Origin: Spirochaetota bacterium | Lineage (GTDB): Bacteria > Spirochaetota > UBA4802 > UBA5550 | NCBI GenBank assembly: GCA_003246895.1 | Contig: QKCL01000015.1 | Coordinates: 20,795 to 84,794, forward strand | DNA: 64,000 bases | Direction: 5' to 3' | Shown here: positions 13,475 to 46,712 of the stretch, piece after piece | How positions within the stretch are numbered: position 1 is the first letter of the stretch | How the letters are laid out: every line of letters starts with the position of its first letter | The notes under the pieces: generated by a model | What the model was told of the DNA's origin: nothing | What the model saw: only the letters and a program-made list of their open reading frames with translations | Database searches by the model: none | Position numbers and translations under genes: made by a program

Positions 13475-14083
13475 ATGGGACGAAAGCACAGAGAAACAAT
13501 AACAGGCGCAACATATCATATTTTTTCACGCTGCATTTCGAGACTTGATCTCTTGAAAAGCAGCTGGATAAAGGATCTATTTCTGCAGGTCATTTCCGAA
13601 ACACAGGAAAAATATGAATTTGAACTGAATACCGTCATTATACTGGACAATCATTTTCACATGGTAATCAGAACCACCTCTTCCTGTGACACAATTTCAC
13701 TGATCATGCAGAGAATAAAATCTGTTTTTGCAAGGAGATATAACAAAATTCATTCAAGAACCGGACCTTTCTGGAACGAACGCTTTGGACATAAAATAGT
13801 AGAAAAAGCTAAAGATATCGTCAAATACACTATTCACCTGCTCTGGTATGCCGCATACAACAGTGTCCGTAAAGGAACAGTTACTGACCCTAGAAATTAT
13901 AAATACAGTTCAATAAATGCCTATCTAGACAAAACCTTCAAATTCCCTCTCAAAATAACGCGTCACAAAATATTCAAGAATTTAGGACGGACATTTAAGG
14001 AACGGACAGAAAAATTTTTAGAGTATGAGAGCATTTACAAAGAATATTTGTCAAAAAAGACTTTAAGTGACCTTAAATTTTAG
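13475..14083 (+). CDS. tnpA: IS200/IS605-like Y1 (HuH) transposase of the REP-associated tyrosine transposase (RAYT) type
   Basis: A 202-aa protein with a HuH motif (NHFHMVIRT) and conserved YHIFSR and FWNERF blocks, with Tyr-containing helices near the C-terminus. Confidence 0.65.
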   Translation: MGRKHRETITGATYHIFSRCISRLDLLKSSWIKDLFLQVISETQEKYEFELNTVIILDNHFHMVIRTTSSCDTISLIMQRIKSVFARRYNKIHSRTGPFWNERFGHKIVEKAKDIVKYTIHLLWYAAYNSVRKGTVTDPRNYKYSSINAYLDKTFKFPLKITRHKIFKNLGRTFKERTEKFLEYESIYKEYLSKKTLSDLKF

Positions 14084-14402: not shown

Positions 14403-16367
14403 CTAGTTTTCAAAAATCCCCATGAGTTCCCTGTAACTGCGTGAAAGGGACGGCAGGTCCCTTACCCTTACCCCGTCGGGGAGTGATTCAAGAAATGATG
14501 AACCGTACCCCTTTGAAAGAATGCGCGGGTCAAGTACTGCAACTATCCCCTTGTCTGTTTCATTTCTGATGAGGCGGCCCGCACCCTGTTTCATCTTTAT
14601 GACGGCTTCGGGTATCTGAAGATCAAAGAATGAATTCTTCCCCTGCTGTTCAACCTTTTCTATGCGGGCCTTCATTATTGGAGTGTCCGGAACCGAAAAT
14701 GGAAGCCTGGTAATTATTACACCCTTGAGAAGGTCGCCGGGCAGGTCTATCCCCTGCCAGAACGAGTGGGTCCCCATTAGAACTGATCCCCTGTTTGCAA
14801 TGTATGCGGAGATTGCACCTGATGCGCTGAGTTCATCCTGGGAGAATATTCTGTTCTCTATGTTTCTCTGAAGAAGATGTTTTACTGTACGGAGCAGGCT
14901 GTATGATGTGAAGAGCACAAGACAGTTGCCGTCTACTATTCGTATTATCTCCGCTATTACGGACGAGATTTTTTCAGGGAATGATAAGCTGTTGGGCTCA
15001 GGGAGTTCCCGGTCTGTGTAGAGGAGCATCTGTTTTTTGTAGTCAAAGGGTGACTTCAGCATGATGGCCTTCCCCCGGCTGAAACCGACGCGGCCCGAGA
15101 AATAGGAGAAGTCATTCTTAACAGAAAGAGTGGCAGAGATGAACACAGATGATTCATAGAATGAGTATACCTCACTCTGCATTATTTCGTTTATGTTCAC
15201 GGGCCTTGCAATGGCCCTGACATTGCCCAGAAGTTCATCCGAGCTTCTCTCTATCCAGTAGACAAAGGAATCACGGTTCAGGTCCAGAAAGAATTTCAGG
15301 GCCTCTGTATATGCGGTGATCTTGTTCTTTGCAGGTTCAAATTCCAGAACTGTATCCTCTTCGTCAAAGTCATTTTCTGCCCGTACAATGAGTTCAAGGA
15401 ACTGGGACAGGAGCGACAGAAATTTCTGCCCCATGTTGACTTTATGGGTGATGCGCAGAACATTGTTCTTTTCAGGGAACAGGTCACGGAGCTGTTCAAA
15501 GAATTTCTGGCCCTCTTTAAGTATCTTGTCTATGAAGTTTATGGCTTCCTGCTGTGTTATTGTGTCCTTGAATGAATAGACGAGGCCGAACTTCCCCTTC
15601 ACATGGAATCTTGACATTATGTTTGCCAGGAGTTTGTGGTCTATGCTGAATCCAAGCTGACCCGAAGCGATTGTTTCAACCGAGTGTGCCTCATCAAAGA
15701 GTACAGCTTCCGTCACGGGCAGGTATGCCTTGCCTGATGCGACATTTGAAAAGAACAGGTAGTGGTTCATGACCAGAATATCAGACTGAGACCATTCCCT
15801 CTTTGCAGCCTGAAAGGGGCACTGTCTGGAATAGGGACATTTCTGGTGGCTGCATGCGTCGGGGTCACGGTTTATCTCCTCCCAGAACTCTCCGGGGCAC
15901 CCTGTGTCAAAGAATGTGAATATGCGCATTTCAGTGAATAGTCTGGAGATCTTTTTCACAAATATCATGTTTCCCTGGCTGAACTGGCCCTTTTTCACTG
16001 CCTTTTCAAAACGCCTTCTGCATGGGTAGTTGGAGCTTCCTAGGCAGAGTGAATATTTGAAATCAAGTCCAAGCTCCTCCTGGCATATCTTCTGCACTAT
16101 GGGCAGGTCCTTGTCCAGGAGCTGTTTCTGGAGCGCCTTGGTTTCAGTGGATATGGCTACACGCTTCCCCTTTGAGAGACTGTAGAGTATGGCCGGAAAA
16201 AGGTATGCCATGCTCTTGCCTGTACCGGTCCCTGCCTCAACGATTCCGTTTTCCGAAGATTCAAGGCGGTCCAGTATGAATTGTGCCATTCTGAGCTGGC
16301 TCTCCCTGTACCTGTATGAGGGCAGGTTCCGGTCGAGTGAGCCTGATGTTTTAAAGATATTGTCCAT
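14403..16367 (-). CDS. dinG: ATP-dependent DNA helicase, DinG/Rad3 (XPD-like) family
   Basis: A Walker A motif (AGTGTGKS), a DEAH-like FDEAHS box and an Fe-S Cys cluster (C...CPYSRQCPF), followed by a C-terminal helicase-C_2 region. Confidence 0.7.
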   Translation of the reverse strand: MDNIFKTSGSLDRNLPSYRYRESQLRMAQFILDRLESSENGIVEAGTGTGKSMAYLFPAILYSLSKGKRVAISTETKALQKQLLDKDLPIVQKICQEELGLDFKYSLCLGSSNYPCRRRFEKAVKKGQFSQGNMIFVKKISRLFTEMRIFTFFDTGCPGEFWEEINRDPDACSHQKCPYSRQCPFQAAKREWSQSDILVMNHYLFFSNVASGKAYLPVTEAVLFDEAHSVETIASGQLGFSIDHKLLANIMSRFHVKGKFGLVYSFKDTITQQEAINFIDKILKEGQKFFEQLRDLFPEKNNVLRITHKVNMGQKFLSLLSQFLELIVRAENDFDEEDTVLEFEPAKNKITAYTEALKFFLDLNRDSFVYWIERSSDELLGNVRAIARPVNINEIMQSEVYSFYESSVFISATLSVKNDFSYFSGRVGFSRGKAIMLKSPFDYKKQMLLYTDRELPEPNSLSFPEKISSVIAEIIRIVDGNCLVLFTSYSLLRTVKHLLQRNIENRIFSQDELSASGAISAYIANRGSVLMGTHSFWQGIDLPGDLLKGVIITRLPFSVPDTPIMKARIEKVEQQGKNSFFDLQIPEAVIKMKQGAGRLIRNETDKGIVAVLDPRILSKGYGSSFLESLPDGVRVRDLPSLSRSYRELMGIFEN

Positions 16368-27602: not shown

Positions 27603-27720
27603 ATAAAAAAACTGCTGTCTCATCTTCCGGAAAAATTCCGCTGGATTTAGCACCTTTTCATCAGAAGGTTGCCGTGGTTTTTGCGGGCCAGTTCCCTACA
27701 CCACTCTTGATAAGACAAAA
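27603..27720 (-). promoter_or_regulatory. SAM-I (S-box) riboswitch in the metX leader
   Basis: The minus-strand RNA reads CUUAUCAAGAGUGGUGUAGGGAACUGGCCCGCAAAAACCACGGCAACC...AAGGUGCUAAAUCCAGCGGAA...GGAAGAUGAGACAGCAG-UUUUUUU. This matches the conserved SAM-I core blocks. Confidence 0.8.
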
Positions 27721-42646: not shown

Positions 42647-42697
42647 CTGATTCTATAAAACCCCGGTCTTAATTAAAATCAAACCTAGGTGAGAGAG
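42647..42697 (+). repeat. Copy 1 of a roughly 48-bp direct repeat that carries an imperfect hairpin
   Basis: The sequence is TTCTATAAAACCCCGGTCTTAATTAAAATCAAACCTAGGTGAGAGAG. Confidence 0.7.
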
Positions 42698-42902
42698 TCC
42701 ATTGGAAATATCCAGAATTTTCAGTATCAGTTCCGGCCGCCTGCTGTCATCCCGGTTTCACGCAGTGAAGACCGGGATCTTATACCTGATGTTCAGGGCT
42801 TGCAAATCAAATTATGGTGAAATATAGTCATGGCTTTTTAGATTTAATATTATCTGCCGTCGTATTAATAATATGCAAAACCAGAATTACTACGTTTATA
42901 TA

Positions 42903-43166
42903 ATGACAAATAAGTATAATTCCGTTTTATATGCAGGAGTAACGAACAATCTGCCCAGAAGAATATACGAACATAAAAATCAAATAACTCAGGGATTTAC
43001 CTTCATTTATAACTGTAAAAAACTGGTCTGATATGAGATTCATCATGATGTCCGTTCTGCCATCAAAAGAGAGAAACAAATTAAAAGGTGGAAGAGGGTC
43101 TATAAACTTAACCTGATATCATTATTAAACCCTGACTGGAAAGATTTATATGAATCTATTCTATAA
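42903..43166 (+). pseudogene. GIY-YIG nuclease family gene (YhbQ/UPF0213-like) broken by one in-frame TGA at codon 43
   Basis: The translation is MTNKYNSVLYAGVTNNLPRRIYEHK...KKLV-TGA-YEIHHDVRSAIKREKQIKRWKRVYKLNLISL. The TGA at 43029-43031 falls where homologues usually have W or Y (LVWYE / LVYYE). Confidence 0.65.
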
Positions 43167-43205
43167 GACCCCGGTCTTGATTAAAATCAAACCGGGGTGA
43201 CAGAA
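43158..43205 (+). repeat. Copy 2 of the 48-bp direct repeat, with a better hairpin
   Basis: TTCTATAAGACCCCGGTCTTGATTAAAATCAAACCGGGGTGACAGAAG. Stem CCCCGGT/ACCGGGG with inner stem TTGATT/AATCAA. Confidence 0.7.
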
Positions 43206-43251: not shown

Positions 43252-43335
43252 TGCCGTGAGAGGGACTCGAACCCTCACAGGAGTACTCCCACCAGACCCT
43301 GAACCTGGCGCGTCTACCAATTCCGCCATCACGGC
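43252..43335 (-). tRNA. tRNA-Leu (anticodon CAG)
   Basis: Minus-strand RNA: GCCGTGATGGCGGAATTGGTAGACGCGCCAGGTTCAGGGTCTGGTGGGAGTACTCCTGTGAGGGTTCGAGTCCCTCTCACGGCA. 7-bp acceptor stem, D-loop GGAATTGGTAGA, loop TTCAGGG, long variable arm, TPsiC GGTTCGAGTCC. CCA not encoded. Confidence 0.8.
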
Positions 43336-44085: not shown

Positions 44086-44460
44086 TTATTTTGCAGTAGT
44101 TCCATCAAAAGCTAATGTAGCAGAAGTATTTTCTGAAATGGTGGCATCGGTTCCTAAAATGGTAGCATTCTCACTGCCAGTACCTGTTAGATTGATTGTG
44201 GCAGTATCTCCAACATTATCAAGGCATTCTCCATTTCCGGTAAGTACTGATATGCCTTTGTAAGAAGTTTCACTAGAGCCGGAAAGGGTTCCACCCCAGG
44301 TCTGATTTGTACTTGAACCTGATTTCCATTTTATTTCAGAAACAGAGGATGATGTACTGTTTTTCCATCTCAGGTCTGCCTTTGACCCGTCATCATCTCC
44401 GCATGCTGCAAAGAACAGCGCTGATATAAATAGTGTTAGTGTTAACATTTTTGTTTTCAT
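44086..44460 (-). CDS. Hypothetical lipoprotein
   Basis: A lipobox (FFAACGDD) and a Ser/Thr-rich body; 124 aa. Confidence 0.35.
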   Translation of the reverse strand: MKTKMLTLTLFISALFFAACGDDDGSKADLRWKNSTSSSVSEIKWKSGSSTNQTWGGTLSGSSETSYKGISVLTGNGECLDNVGDTATINLTGTGSENATILGTDATISENTSATLAFDGTTAK

Positions 44461-44805
44461 CTTATTTCTCCTTAATTATGCCTTTTTTTGAGGCTGATTT
44501 TTCATTGTTTCAGGTTTTCTGCTGCAGCCGGTTTCAGGTTCTTGTTAAGTACTCCGGCACCTTGCTGCGGCCTTTCTGTTTTTTATCGGTACTCTGGCAC
44601 CAAAAACAGACCGGTAATTAATTAAATGAATCCATACAAAAGAGTCAATAAAAAATTGGGGTCTATACAGAGTATTTGTATGAGTCGAACAGTATAAATT
44701 CAAGGTCTGATGGACATTGTTAAAAGTGGGTAATCCCTATCTAACATCATAAATAAATCCTCCAGTAATATTATTATCGTCTAATACTGAAGATTTACAC
44801 AGTTA

Positions 44806-44920
44806 CTCTGACACTCCCTCAATTTGATGCTCGGGAGTGCCAATTTGACCCAACTGTGCATCGATTTAACCAAACGGTGCGTCGATTTAGGGAGTGTCAG
44901 GAGAGTGTCAGATTTTTTGT
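44806..44920 (+). other. Structured inverted-repeat element: an 11-bp perfect inverted repeat closing about 70 nt, followed by a T-run. A candidate sRNA or MITE-like element.
   Basis: CTGACACTCCC (44808-44818) pairs with GGGAGTGTCAG (44890-44900). Inside are direct repeats TGCATCGATTTA / TGCGTCGATTTA. It is followed by GAGAGTGTCAG and TTTTTT. Confidence 0.4.
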
Positions 44921-45126
44921 ACCCTGGGGCATAATAATGTAGATAGCCTTTGATTCATATTAAATCTGCACTCTACCTTCAAAGTGAATTGCGAATTGAT
45001 TCAAAGCAAGACCCCAATCCAGAACAGGCCTGGTCCATTTTCTGGAGGCCTTATCCAGAGCAAGACAAATTACTTTTACAATCTGCATTGTAATTGCAGT
45101 TTTACAAAACTGCTTAAATACGCTCA

Positions 45127-45150
45127 TTTTCTTTGCTCGCCCAAAGAAAA
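45127..45150. repeat. Hairpin TTTTCTTTG-ctcgcc-CAAAGAAAA, member 1 of a shared hairpin family
   Basis: A 9-bp perfect stem. Confidence 0.5.
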
Positions 45151-45363
45151 CGAGCCAAAAGAAAAGGGCTCTGCCTCAGGCGCCGGCAGGGGCTACCACC
45201 TCACATGCCGGTGAGGCTTACATAAAGAAACCTAAACATTTCATACTCACGATTCTCTTTATATTCTAAACTGGTGGGTCTTTTTGTGTTTCTGGACTGG
45301 TTCTGTTCGGGTTTGTATCGTCGTCCTGACGGACAAACCCGGCTAGGGCGTCCTGCCCAAGCT

Positions 45364-45504
45364 CTATTTATTGCGCTGCTTAACTGTTTTGAAAAAACTA
45401 TTTATGCTATCCTGCAATTGGGCAACCGGTTGACTTAGTCGCACCAACCCATTCTTTACCTCATATTTCATGTGGAACTCTCGGTGTTTTGATTTAACGA
45501 CCAT
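45364..45504 (-). pseudogene. C-terminal remnant paralogous to the 111-aa gene at 45726-46061
   Basis: The remnant reads ...REFHMKYEVKNGLVRL... against ...HKEFLMEYEVKKGFELI... in the intact gene. A TGA lies just upstream, so no full-length ORF remains. Confidence 0.45.
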
Positions 45505-45674
45505 TTCACCAGATTTTTTTCATCTTTTAAAGCCCATTTTTACTAAAAGTAGTCAATCATCCGCTGAAGGCGGATACATCTTTCAGCCAGAGTTTCGAAG
45601 CTATTTCGAAGAAATACTCGAAACTTCTGTGCCATAGCCTCCCGTGGCGACTGAACGGGCGCCCTTTCTTTTCG

Positions 45675-45706
45675 CCTATTTTCTTTGGGCGAACAAAGAA
45701 AATAGG
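45675..45706. repeat. Hairpin CCTATTTTCTTTG-ggcgaa-CAAAGAAAATAGG, member 2; 13-bp stem
   Basis: It shares the core TTTTCTTTG/CAAAGAAAA with the hairpin at 45127. Confidence 0.5.
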
Positions 45707-45725
45707 CACCCCCCGAGCAGCCTGT

Positions 45726-46061
45726 TCAAACTGAATGACTTCTTCCGGGGTGAAACCACATTATTAACTCAAACCCTTTCTTTACCTCATACTCCATAAG
45801 AAACTCTTTGTGCTGTATTATTTTATGTATTACTCTGGAAGGAGCCTGCTCAACTGAACCGTATATTTCTTCTACCTTATGTATGTAGTTTTCAAGTTCC
45901 TTTACCTTAAGGTTAAAGAACTCCCGCTCCATTGCCTTTTCAGGGGATTCATTTAAGGGCGAACCGGAAGCTCTGGTACTGGACGAAGACGAAGTAGTTG
46001 TACCGGATGCAGCCGAAGTGCCCGGTTTGGGAAGGTAATTCCATACTTCTGATAATTTCAT
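45726..46061 (-). CDS. Hypothetical protein
   Basis: A 111-aa protein with a Ser/Thr-rich linker and a helical C-terminus. A decayed paralogue lies about 300 bp away. Confidence 0.3.
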   Translation of the reverse strand: MKLSEVWNYLPKPGTSAASGTTTSSSSSTRASGSPLNESPEKAMEREFFNLKVKELENYIHKVEEIYGSVEQAPSRVIHKIIQHKEFLMEYEVKKGFELIMWFHPGRSHSV

Positions 46062-46143
46062 GTGACGGCAATTCCTTTGTGTTTATTGATTGCCATTTAA
46101 GTTGTCAAGTATTTCATAATACTGTAGGATAGTATCGAATTGT

Positions 46144-46440
46144 TTATTTGATCTTTTTCAATTTATAAAAGCCGTGCAACAAAACGATGAATGAACCAAT
46201 TAAACCTATAGTCGACATTACCATCCCCCCCTTTGGATCCAACATCCCTGTACGCATACTTGGAGGATCTATATAGTTTAAAACAGATATTACAAATAAT
46301 ATCAAACAAACTATACCTGAAACTATCGAAGGTACAATAGAAATATTTATAATCTGTTTTCTTTCAAAATTGATTTCTTCATTCTTGTAATTATAAGATT
46401 TCGATTTTCTAGCATTTAATAATCTATTTTTTTGGCCCAT
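46144..46440 (-). CDS. Hypothetical small membrane protein
   Basis: A 98-aa protein with two TM helices. Confidence 0.3.
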   Translation of the reverse strand: MGQKNRLLNARKSKSYNYKNEEINFERKQIINISIVPSIVSGIVCLILFVISVLNYIDPPSMRTGMLDPKGGMVMSTIGLIGSFIVLLHGFYKLKKIK

Positions 46441-46712
46441 GTATTTGTACTCCCCCCATTTTCAAGAGCTGTTTTAAACAGAAACTATGCTACCTTAATT
46501 ACCGAAGGGTAGTATCTATTTCTTCATCCCTTCCTTCCCATTGCCTGCCATGGTCTCCGGCACACCATTACTTACCATGTATCTCCACCCTTTTTCAAGC
46601 TATTATTTAACCATAACATGAGATCTCTCCTTACACATTTACACAAAATTTTCCATTTAATGTTAATGTTCCCTCCCCTGTTTTTCGTTATATATACAAA
46701 TGGAGGCAACAT

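Follow-up and report, generated by a model that had tools for sequence, protein, structure and literature searches.

Two Facing Hairpin Modules Beside an ORFan

The 64,000-nt stretch analyzed here (the window) belongs to contig QKCL01000015.1 of a Spirochaetota bacterium, and the element in question, at window positions 45100–45726, is a decayed copy of a dispersed, non-coding repeat with a predicted fold. It lies between a lipoprotein gene (44086–44460, minus strand) and an open reading frame (ORF) of 111 aa (45726–46061, minus strand), whose stop codon adjoins or overlaps the element at its right border. As an earlier reading of the sequence (the original prediction) had stated, the 1.27 kb between the two genes hold no convincing ORF: none in 44461–45725 exceeds 76 aa, and the longest ones merely run through the repeats described below.

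Two related hairpins with a shared core, both correctly predicted, stand in this interval. Hairpin A (45122–45155) has 14 bp with one A·C mismatch, and hairpin B (45674–45707) has 14 bp and is perfect; just past the gene, as predicted, 18 nt separate the end of hairpin B from the stop codon (45726–45728) of the 111-aa ORF. The core does not occur elsewhere in the 64 kb, and none of 100 shuffles yielded any match. The two hairpins stand in inverted, and not in direct, orientation: the longest inverted repeat of the region pairs 45126–45167 with 45662–45703, and by alignment the similarity between A and B stretches over about 85–90 nt (45111–45199 versus 45715–45630). With a covariance model, the shared unit is 54 nt long and exactly two modules are found in the window, facing each other 552 nt apart: module A (45119–45172; 71.3 bits, E = 4e-15) and module B (45657–45710; 73.7 bits, E = 1.1e-15). 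In the orientation of the model, module A is on the plus strand and module B on the minus strand; the pyrimidine-motif strand is the minus strand for A and the plus strand for B.

The geometry of module B is that of the family consensus. Its pyrimidine strand comprises a pseudoknot 5′ strand (CGCC, 45660–45663), a third strand (TTTCTTTT, 45665–45672), an outer stem (45674–45678 with 45703–45707), two inner arms (45679–45687 and 45694–45702) and the loop GGCGAA (45688–45693), of which GGCG pairs with 45660–45663. In module A, the inner arms are at 45127–45135 and 45142–45150, the loop at 45136–45141 and the tract at 45157–45165; the pseudoknot partner is GGC (45167–45169), and the fourth pair has been lost (C45138 versus T45170). 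Module A is extended by a second small hairpin (45172–45188; stem TGCC/GGCA, loop TCAGGCGCC) with a counterpart at 45643–45657 beside module B. The stem of this small hairpin covaries across window A, window B and three other loci (L091, L100, and L084), in which it reads TGCC/GGCA, CGT/ACG, TCGC/GCGA, TCC/GGA, and GCCGC/GCGGC. A coding reading of the module was rejected, because the ORFs that cross it are repeat artefacts and the stem covaries.

Close pairs of modules elsewhere in the family are arranged in much the same way. They are tails-inward, 284–582 nt apart, in eight cases (the window included), direct in one and tails-outward in none, and this near-uniform arrangement implies that modules A and B most likely belong to one two-module element of about 600 bp (45100–45726), with outer inverted repeats of about 85–90 nt and a non-palindromic interior. 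In the seven other two-module copies, the arms are 0.6–0.8 complementary along their whole length, whereas in the window the arm-to-arm identity is 0.75 and 0.72 over the first 80 nt and then falls to background. Since the internal palindrome is gone and one pseudoknot pair of module A has been lost, the window copy is degenerate, in agreement with the local decay that had been proposed. It is probably inert.

A Multi-Copy Module in Eight or More Phyla

On the pyrimidine-motif strand, the end module of about 54 nt reads 5′-XGCC-Y-UUUCUUUU-N-(5 variable nt + UUUUCUUUG)-GGCX′-NN-(CAAAGAAAA + 5 complementary nt)-3′. An exact-pattern scan, with one genome per species, gave at least 120 loci with the canonical core, and a metagenome scan for a register-shifted variant gave at least 120 further loci. 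The suggestion that the hairpins form a family was thus borne out: the module is multi-copy and intergenic, and it was found (at least 120 loci) in Bacteroidota, Thermodesulfobacteriota, Gammaproteobacteria, Selenomonadales, Fusobacterium, Spirochaetota, Gemmatimonadota, and Elusimicrobiota, that is, in eight or more phyla. Carriers include Flavobacteriia isolates of the genera Aquimarina, Kordia, Gillisia, Salegentibacter, and Arenibacter, as well as Gallibacterium and Fusobacterium perfoetens. Many others are metagenome-assembled genomes (MAGs), the taxonomy of which may be wrong, assigned to Desulfobacterales, Thermodesulfobacteriota, Gammaproteobacteria, Selenomonadales, Spirochaetota, Gemmatimonas, and Elusimicrobiales.

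In one MAG, more than 20 contigs carry a copy; in several of the 8-kb loci, a second, divergent copy is present. Within a lineage the repeated unit is 200–450 nt long: the module forms one end, and next to it comes a “rod” that is specific to the lineage and for the most part self-complementary; most copies of the family have one module only. No match was found in 2.9 million viral contigs and nothing similar in 5,426 Escherichia coli genomes; a plasmid collection gave only two unannotated matches, on a Pseudoalteromonas chromid. A comparison of the window and 17 loci with Rfam 15, at gathering and at permissive thresholds (E ≤ 10), returned noise matches only, a negative result that covers SAM-II, preQ1-II, and the self-cleaving ribozymes. 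A text search for the letters of the module in a literature collection of 8 million papers gave no literal match.

The neighbors of the module are unrelated housekeeping genes. When neighboring ORFs were clustered, twice, no common protein family or transposase emerged; the only clusters were ABC ATPases, PAS kinases, and a few tyrosine recombinases, in about the number expected by chance. The element is non-autonomous. Intergenic regions between divergent genes are avoided: the genes on either side of the copies are co-directional in one sense or the other (24 and 24), convergent (22) or, rarely, divergent (3).

Some gammaproteobacterial loci (L047, L075, L018, L130, and others) have an additional G+C-rich, REP-like hairpin (e.g., GCGAGCTTCCGCGCTCGC) ahead of the module, and the elements there sit within mosaics of other small repeats that are BIME-like.

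Covariation of Stem, Pseudoknot, and Third Strand

Covariation was scored across 85–190 distinct copies. Each of the five outer stem pairs has undergone 10–21 two-sided changes with complementarity kept (10–39 over both alignments), and none of 500 shuffles reached the observed values; in a second alignment, 99.1% of the cells in the outer stem pair. Diverged copies revealed in addition that the four last bases of the loop pair with the four bases past the purine tract. This predicted pseudoknot takes forms such as CGCC/GGCG, UGCC/GGCA, UGGC/GCCA, and UGUCC/GGACA, longer or other ones such as CGCUC/GAGCG, GCCGC/GCGGC, and CCCGC/GCGGG, and wholly different helices such as TTGAT/ATCAA and GTG/CAC. 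At its variable position, all four Watson–Crick pair types occur among the 108 scorable metagenome copies (U-A in 63, G-C in 21, C-G in 11, and A-U in 3; 98 in all, with 10 mismatches). By a formal count, 89.4% of the pseudoknot is paired.

The third covarying part is the tract, which mirrors the purine arm of the stem. A stem with A3GA4 is accompanied by a tract with A4GA3, a stem with A4GA3 by a tract with A3GA4, and where the stem has gained A-U pairs the tract has gained A's to correspond (A3GA5 with A5GA3, A4GA4 with A4GA4). A scan that specified the register-shifted stem (TTTCTTTTG/CAAAAGAAA) and put no constraint on the tract gave at least 120 loci, and nearly all tract-bearing ones had the shifted tract AAAGAAAA(A). 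In an alignment of 85 copies, chosen for fixed geometry and not for concordance, all 85 were concordant (52 with canonical and 33 with shifted stems), and parallel pairing of tract and purine arm fitted 340 of 340 cells, versus 75% when the tract was slid by one column.

The register has switched separately within Arenibacter-type, Selenomonadales-type, and delta/gamma-type lineages, and also between otherwise near-identical elements (L152 versus L113, L123 versus L011). In two metagenome elements (L130 and L212), the left and right modules differ in C/G register and each keeps its own tract; these tracts are not complementary to each other, which excludes inter-module pairing as the cause. 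Selection for pairing of the tract with the 5′ arm was rejected as well, because the unshifted tract would then be the better partner of a register-shifted stem. Since copying of either strand could not produce the mirror relation, its simplest reading is selection on a three-stranded contact. Comparison of the copies establishes family membership of the window modules, the hairpin, the pseudoknot, and the three-way register, along with the non-autonomy of the element and the decay of its local copy.

The spacing of these parts is also constrained: according to pattern tallies that include some duplicate and false matches, the outer stem is 5 bp in 184 of 352 cases, the linker 1 nt in 210 of 352 and the loop 6 nt in 323 of 352. 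Three loci have an extra small hairpin between the hairpin and the tract or within the tract (L031, at +24 to +60; L242; L233), and these insertions show where the fold tolerates extra sequence.

Predicted Fold and Strand

On the pyrimidine strand, the order of the parts is pseudoknot strand, tract, and hairpin. Such a single strand would fold into an H-type pseudoknot with the pyrimidine tract as loop 1, which would occupy the deep groove of the hairpin stem and run parallel to the purine arm. Eight triples would be formed in Hoogsteen geometry, seven U(T)·A-U(T) and one C+·G-C. To get past the 5-bp outer stem, the single linker nucleotide would have to span the groove, which would explain the fixed length of that stem.

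Several observations point to this strand. On the pyrimidine strand, 33 of 85 copies have G·U as the junction pair, equivalent to A·C on the other strand, and the module folds more stably on the pyrimidine strand in 171 of 189 copies; the rod favors the same strand more weakly (111 versus 79). In addition, purine-motif triplexes have been reported not to form in RNA (PMC4666352), so an RNA fold, if there is one, must use the pyrimidine strand. The opposite arrangement, in which the other strand would fold with its purine tract as a loop 3 in the minor groove, was judged less likely, because a 1-nt linker cannot bridge the 5-bp outer stem, the pair in place of G·U would be A·C and folding is poorer. 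A deep-groove triple helix on the pyrimidine strand is, on this comparative evidence, fairly likely. As for the type of nucleic acid, G·U pairs and U·A-U triples suit RNA, and the GNA-type triloops of the rod and the precedent of BoxC suit single-stranded DNA.

Known Elements of Similar Form

BoxC/PIT/TM_ECO elements (Holder et al., 2015, PMC4666352; following Hoyne and Maher, 2000, 2002) are G/C-rich three-block motifs found in E. coli and other Proteobacteria, in more than 260 genomes. They form a triplex in vitro, also occur as inverted pairs, have no gene association and lie at unstable loci; for TM_ECO, no triplex could be detected in vivo (PMC4666352). Like these elements, the present family has three blocks on a single strand, separated by short loops: a pyrimidine arm, a purine arm and a third one that keeps the register of a triplex; it is likewise multi-copy and intergenic, without a consistent flanking gene or orientation, and it shares with them the inverted pairs and the variable loci. 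However, the TM_ECO consensus is G/C-rich (CCCTCNCCC-N3-6-GGGNGAGGG-N3-GGGNGAGGG), comes from Proteobacteria and has been modeled as a purine-motif DNA triplex, whereas the family described here is A/T-rich, contains only one C/G, does not match that consensus and adds the covarying 5-bp outer stem and the covarying 4-bp pseudoknot. It also differs in its distribution (eight or more phyla, and none of the 5,426 E. coli genomes) and in the comparative evidence, from three-way covariation, for a selected register. The study of TM_ECO goes no further with A/T-rich motifs than to count them and does not use the word “pseudoknot” (PMC4666352); no bacterial repeat element is among those covered by a 2026 review of RNA triple helices. 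The family is an A/T-rich, pseudoknot-locked, cross-phylum relative in kind of BoxC/PIT/TM_ECO and not the same family.

H-type pseudoknots with a major-groove U·A-U triple helix are formed by the telomerase RNA pseudoknot and by the SAM-II and preQ1-II riboswitches. Their topology consists of a short helix, a U-rich loop 1 in the deep groove of a U/A-rich second helix, and a short loop 3, and the sequence and covariation of the module fit it; its eight potential triples presumably exceed the number in these three RNAs. Unlike them, the module has no Rfam similarity, is dispersed in many copies without a tie to a gene or ligand and may act as DNA.

With REP and REPIN sequences, the family shares short, hairpin-forming intergenic repeats and a position between convergent or co-directional genes; some of its copies form inverted doublets, and the window contains a RAYT-like gene (13475–14083, plus strand). 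The 202-aa Y1/HUH protein that it encodes matches Pfam Y1_Tnp (E = 7.7e-13), and its best NCBIfam match is “REP-associated tyrosine transposase” at 77.9 bits, for a cut-off of 80. REPs, however, are lineage-specific, begin with 5′ GTAG and flank their RAYT gene, whereas the module is cross-phylum, with doublets 280–580 nt apart; as regards the doublets typical of REPINs, there are the eight tails-inward pairs at 284–582 nt, and most copies are single. No module flanks or lies near the RAYT-like gene, and no RAYT homologue was found by tblastn in about 240 loci. This gene is a lead, not a link, to the partner enzyme of the element.

The family resembles miniature inverted-repeat transposable elements (MITEs) in being non-autonomous, a few hundred bp long and present in many copies, with long terminal inverted repeats in the two-module form. 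It differs from them in that it has no transposase-bearing parent and no visible target-site duplication, that most copies have one module and that conservation falls on a folded structure, not on a simple terminal inverted repeat. The traits of IS200/IS605 elements are also missing: no Y1 transposase or TnpB adjoins the copies, and their orientation with respect to GC skew is 74 versus 65.

A Structured Repeat That May Spread Selfishly

The interpretation that we favor, and which we regard as probable on balance, is that window positions 45100–45726 hold a decayed copy of a non-autonomous, non-coding repeat that has triple-helix pseudoknot ends and spreads selfishly. Such an element would spread or persist as a selfish repeat, like REP, BoxC or a MITE, and this mode of propagation seems likely for the family. 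Recognition of the folded module would take place during transcription or while the DNA is single-stranded, and an enzyme with its gene elsewhere in the genome would be the most plausible agent.

Several points weigh against this interpretation. We infer the triple helix from covariation and topology only, and for the choice of strand the main grounds are a single stem position, the topology and the folding energies. Because the inner stem and some of the loop were specified in the search patterns, conservation of those parts reflects ascertainment, and the copies are related by descent, so that the counts given above overstate the number of independent events. Only two modules lie in the 64 kb of the source genome covered here. 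Copy number alone speaks for mobility, as no transposase, target-site duplication or empty site was found. Finally, the copies have no orientation bias with respect to flanking genes or GC skew (74 versus 65), which argues against a fixed role in transcripts and against IS200-like strand-specific insertion; a replication-linked orientation was rejected for the same lack of correlation with GC skew.

A broader proposal can be put forward tentatively, with less confidence than the interpretation above: the family may be a cross-phylum, mobile, non-coding one with a telomerase- or ENE-like triple-helix pseudoknot end, it may provide the first comparative proof of a selected bacterial intrastrand triplex, and it may serve an undescribed mechanism of mobilization or RNA stability. 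If so, the candidate roles would be an RNA with a triplex-shielded 3′ end or a folded single-stranded DNA substrate for a new class of enzyme. BoxC/PIT/TM_ECO elements have been known for about 25 years, and to our knowledge their folding in cells has never been shown. Co-change of stem, pseudoknot, and third strand in independent lineages is the type of evidence that establishes RNA structures, and the module is a compact object of 54 nt with clear mutational predictions. Confirmation of the fold would add one more natural long triple helix, in bacteria; it would give annotators a defined repeat family, which is now unannotated or mistranslated as small ORFs, and it would allow REP/RAYT-type biology to be linked to tertiary DNA or RNA structure. 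For the window itself, the practical result is modest.

Two alternatives concern the molecule in which the module acts, and we consider each of them unlikely, though worth weighing. In the first, the module acts in RNA: read-through transcripts would end at, or be trimmed to, the triple-helix pseudoknot, which would block 3′–5′ exonucleases or insulate the neighboring genes, and two-module copies would protect both strands between genes. REP hairpins and the eukaryotic ENE and MALAT1 triple helices do such 3′-end protection. A pyrimidine-motif U·A-U triplex is an RNA-compatible fold, the G·U at the junction pair and the better folding of the pyrimidine strand are consistent with RNA, and the copies are placed downstream of one gene or more and shun promoter-only regions. 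Selenomonadales keep a −10-like TAGGAT/TAGAAT box beside the module, though on the opposite strand. However, one-module copies have no preferred orientation relative to the gene that would read into them (57:34 versus 62:37), no U-tract or terminator signature is present, and a copy number above 20 per genome, together with long rods that are specific to lineages, has the look of a selfish element and not of a regulatory one.

In the second alternative, about which we are similarly doubtful, the module matters as DNA only. A non-B structure (intrastrand triplex, H-DNA or cruciform) would arise briefly in the course of replication or repair and promote rearrangement, a role that has been proposed for TM_ECO/BoxC; the covariation would reflect selection for foldability of single-stranded DNA, perhaps as the substrate of a RAYT-like HUH transposase. 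GNA-type triloops, which are very stable in single-stranded DNA, occur on the pyrimidine strand in the small hairpins of the rod. The window locus is rearranged relative to the related contig described below, the RAYT-like gene is present in the window, and TM_ECO has the same three-block architecture, inverted pairs and a link with variable loci (PMC4666352). Nevertheless, the TM_ECO triplex itself was undetected in vivo (PMC4666352), the RAYT-like gene is not flanked by modules, no RAYT was found in the roughly 240 loci, and the orientation of the copies is uncorrelated with GC skew.

The Surrounding Interval and the tRNA-Leu Gene

A rather different scenario had been put forward in the original prediction, in which a cassette made of a small gene and a terminator-like hairpin was repeatedly inserted or duplicated at a tRNA-Leu hotspot and then decayed. 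One of its foundations is sound: 45435–45486 (minus strand), in the interior of the element, is a direct duplicate of part of the 3′ region of the 111-aa ORF (45761–45812; 52 nt, 75% identity, same strand). The local score of this match is 26, a value reached by none of 300 shuffles (mean 12.5, sd 1.4, maximum 19). At the protein level, however, the similarity covers only about 15 aa (E = 0.07 in a window-wide tblastn), and 12 of the 13 nucleotide differences are non-synonymous, so that a past of this remnant as a functional paralogue, which had also been proposed, is unsupported. The paralogues of the 111-aa protein that had been expected were not found either; the ORF is an ORFan, with only a self-match among 5.8 billion proteins.

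The second foundation, the accessory nature of the segment, is confirmed by comparison with the closest relative contig (L243), whose M14 peptidase is 67% identical in aa sequence to that of the window; homologues of this peptidase carry the names Spirochaetota or Leptospirales. Both contigs share the gene order peptidase, GIY-YIG, tRNA-Leu(CAG), 253-aa gene, and lipoprotein gene. Between the lipoprotein gene and a 148-aa gene, L243 then has an alkaline phosphatase gene in place of window positions 44660–46688, and it contains no module. The region upstream of the lipoprotein gene (44461–44660, minus strand), to the right of which the variable segment starts, is partly kept in the relative (44619–44659 versus 13281–13321 of L243, 85%). 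A decayed alkaline phosphatase gene was considered as the source of the non-coding stretch and rejected, as no trace of it remains in the window.

The position of this variable DNA does not fit a tRNA hotspot. The tRNA-Leu(CAG) gene (43252–43335, minus strand) is syntenic in the relative, together with the two genes adjoining it, and is not linked to the element; the variable DNA is on the tRNA's 5′ side, where it begins at a distance of 1.3 kb, and the tRNA 3′ end faces away from it. No integrase was found among 45 ORFs of the window (all the largest non-overlapping ones and those adjoining the region), and the window contains no tRNA-derived, att-like repeat; both had been suggested as signs to look for beyond the window. 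A tRNA-linked genomic island is marked by an integrase, by direct repetition of the tRNA 3′ end and by a 3′-side insert that relatives lack; these marks are missing here. The interval is variable, yet it is not an island at the tRNA.

The cassette itself fares no better. The difference from the closest relative, the genuine 52-nt duplicate and the 18 nt between hairpin B and the stop codon are all compatible with it, but the two gene fragments have the same direction and the two modules opposite ones, and the module family is cross-phylum without an associated gene while the 111-aa ORF is found in this genome only. Together with the synteny of the tRNA, this leaves a repeatedly inserted cassette very improbable. 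It is scarcely credible that the hairpins are ordinary intrinsic terminators or cis-regulatory RNAs of adjacent genes, since, even if hairpin B closely follows the 111-aa ORF, there is no G+C-rich stem followed by a U-run (the stem is A/U-rich, no U-run lies downstream and a terminator scan did not flag it), no Rfam match at E ≤ 10, and the neighboring genes are unrelated across loci. The sequence features that had been described are real and their interpretation is only partly supported: the supposed island is an ordinary variable intergenic interval with one dead copy of the repeat.

Other Features of the Window

Several features of the window fall outside the family. Within the same interval, an unrelated 16-bp inverted repeat (CTGACACTCCCTCAAT/ATTTAGGGAGTGTCAG; 44808–44900) encloses two 21-nt tandem units; it is single-copy in the window and folds well (z about −3). 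Near the tRNA, the GIY-YIG gene (42873–43160, plus strand) is a pseudogene, with a stop after 52 aa compared with an intact 97 aa in L243. It is flanked by direct copies of a hairpin repeat (GACCCCGG...CCGGGGTGACAG; 42659–42700 and 43167–43205), and analogous repeats surround the intact gene in L243. Another small hairpin repeat (TCCCGGTTT...ACCGGGA), at 42750–42777, is common to L243 (~11316, ~11466, and 15371–15409). A SAM (S-box) riboswitch is present at 27617–27716 (minus strand; 84.6 bits).

The 10-mer CTCYGGCACC occurs 12 times in the window, always on the plus strand, compared with 0.15 expected occurrences (10079, 10195, 12466, 12523, 12657, 13310, 13347, 13398, 17125, 41815, 44552, and 44592). 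Of these occurrences, three are immediately upstream of the RAYT-like gene, two in the non-coding stretch 44461–45725 and several inside real genes. It could be a polar oligomer, Chi- or KOPS-like, or a RAYT-linked repeat.

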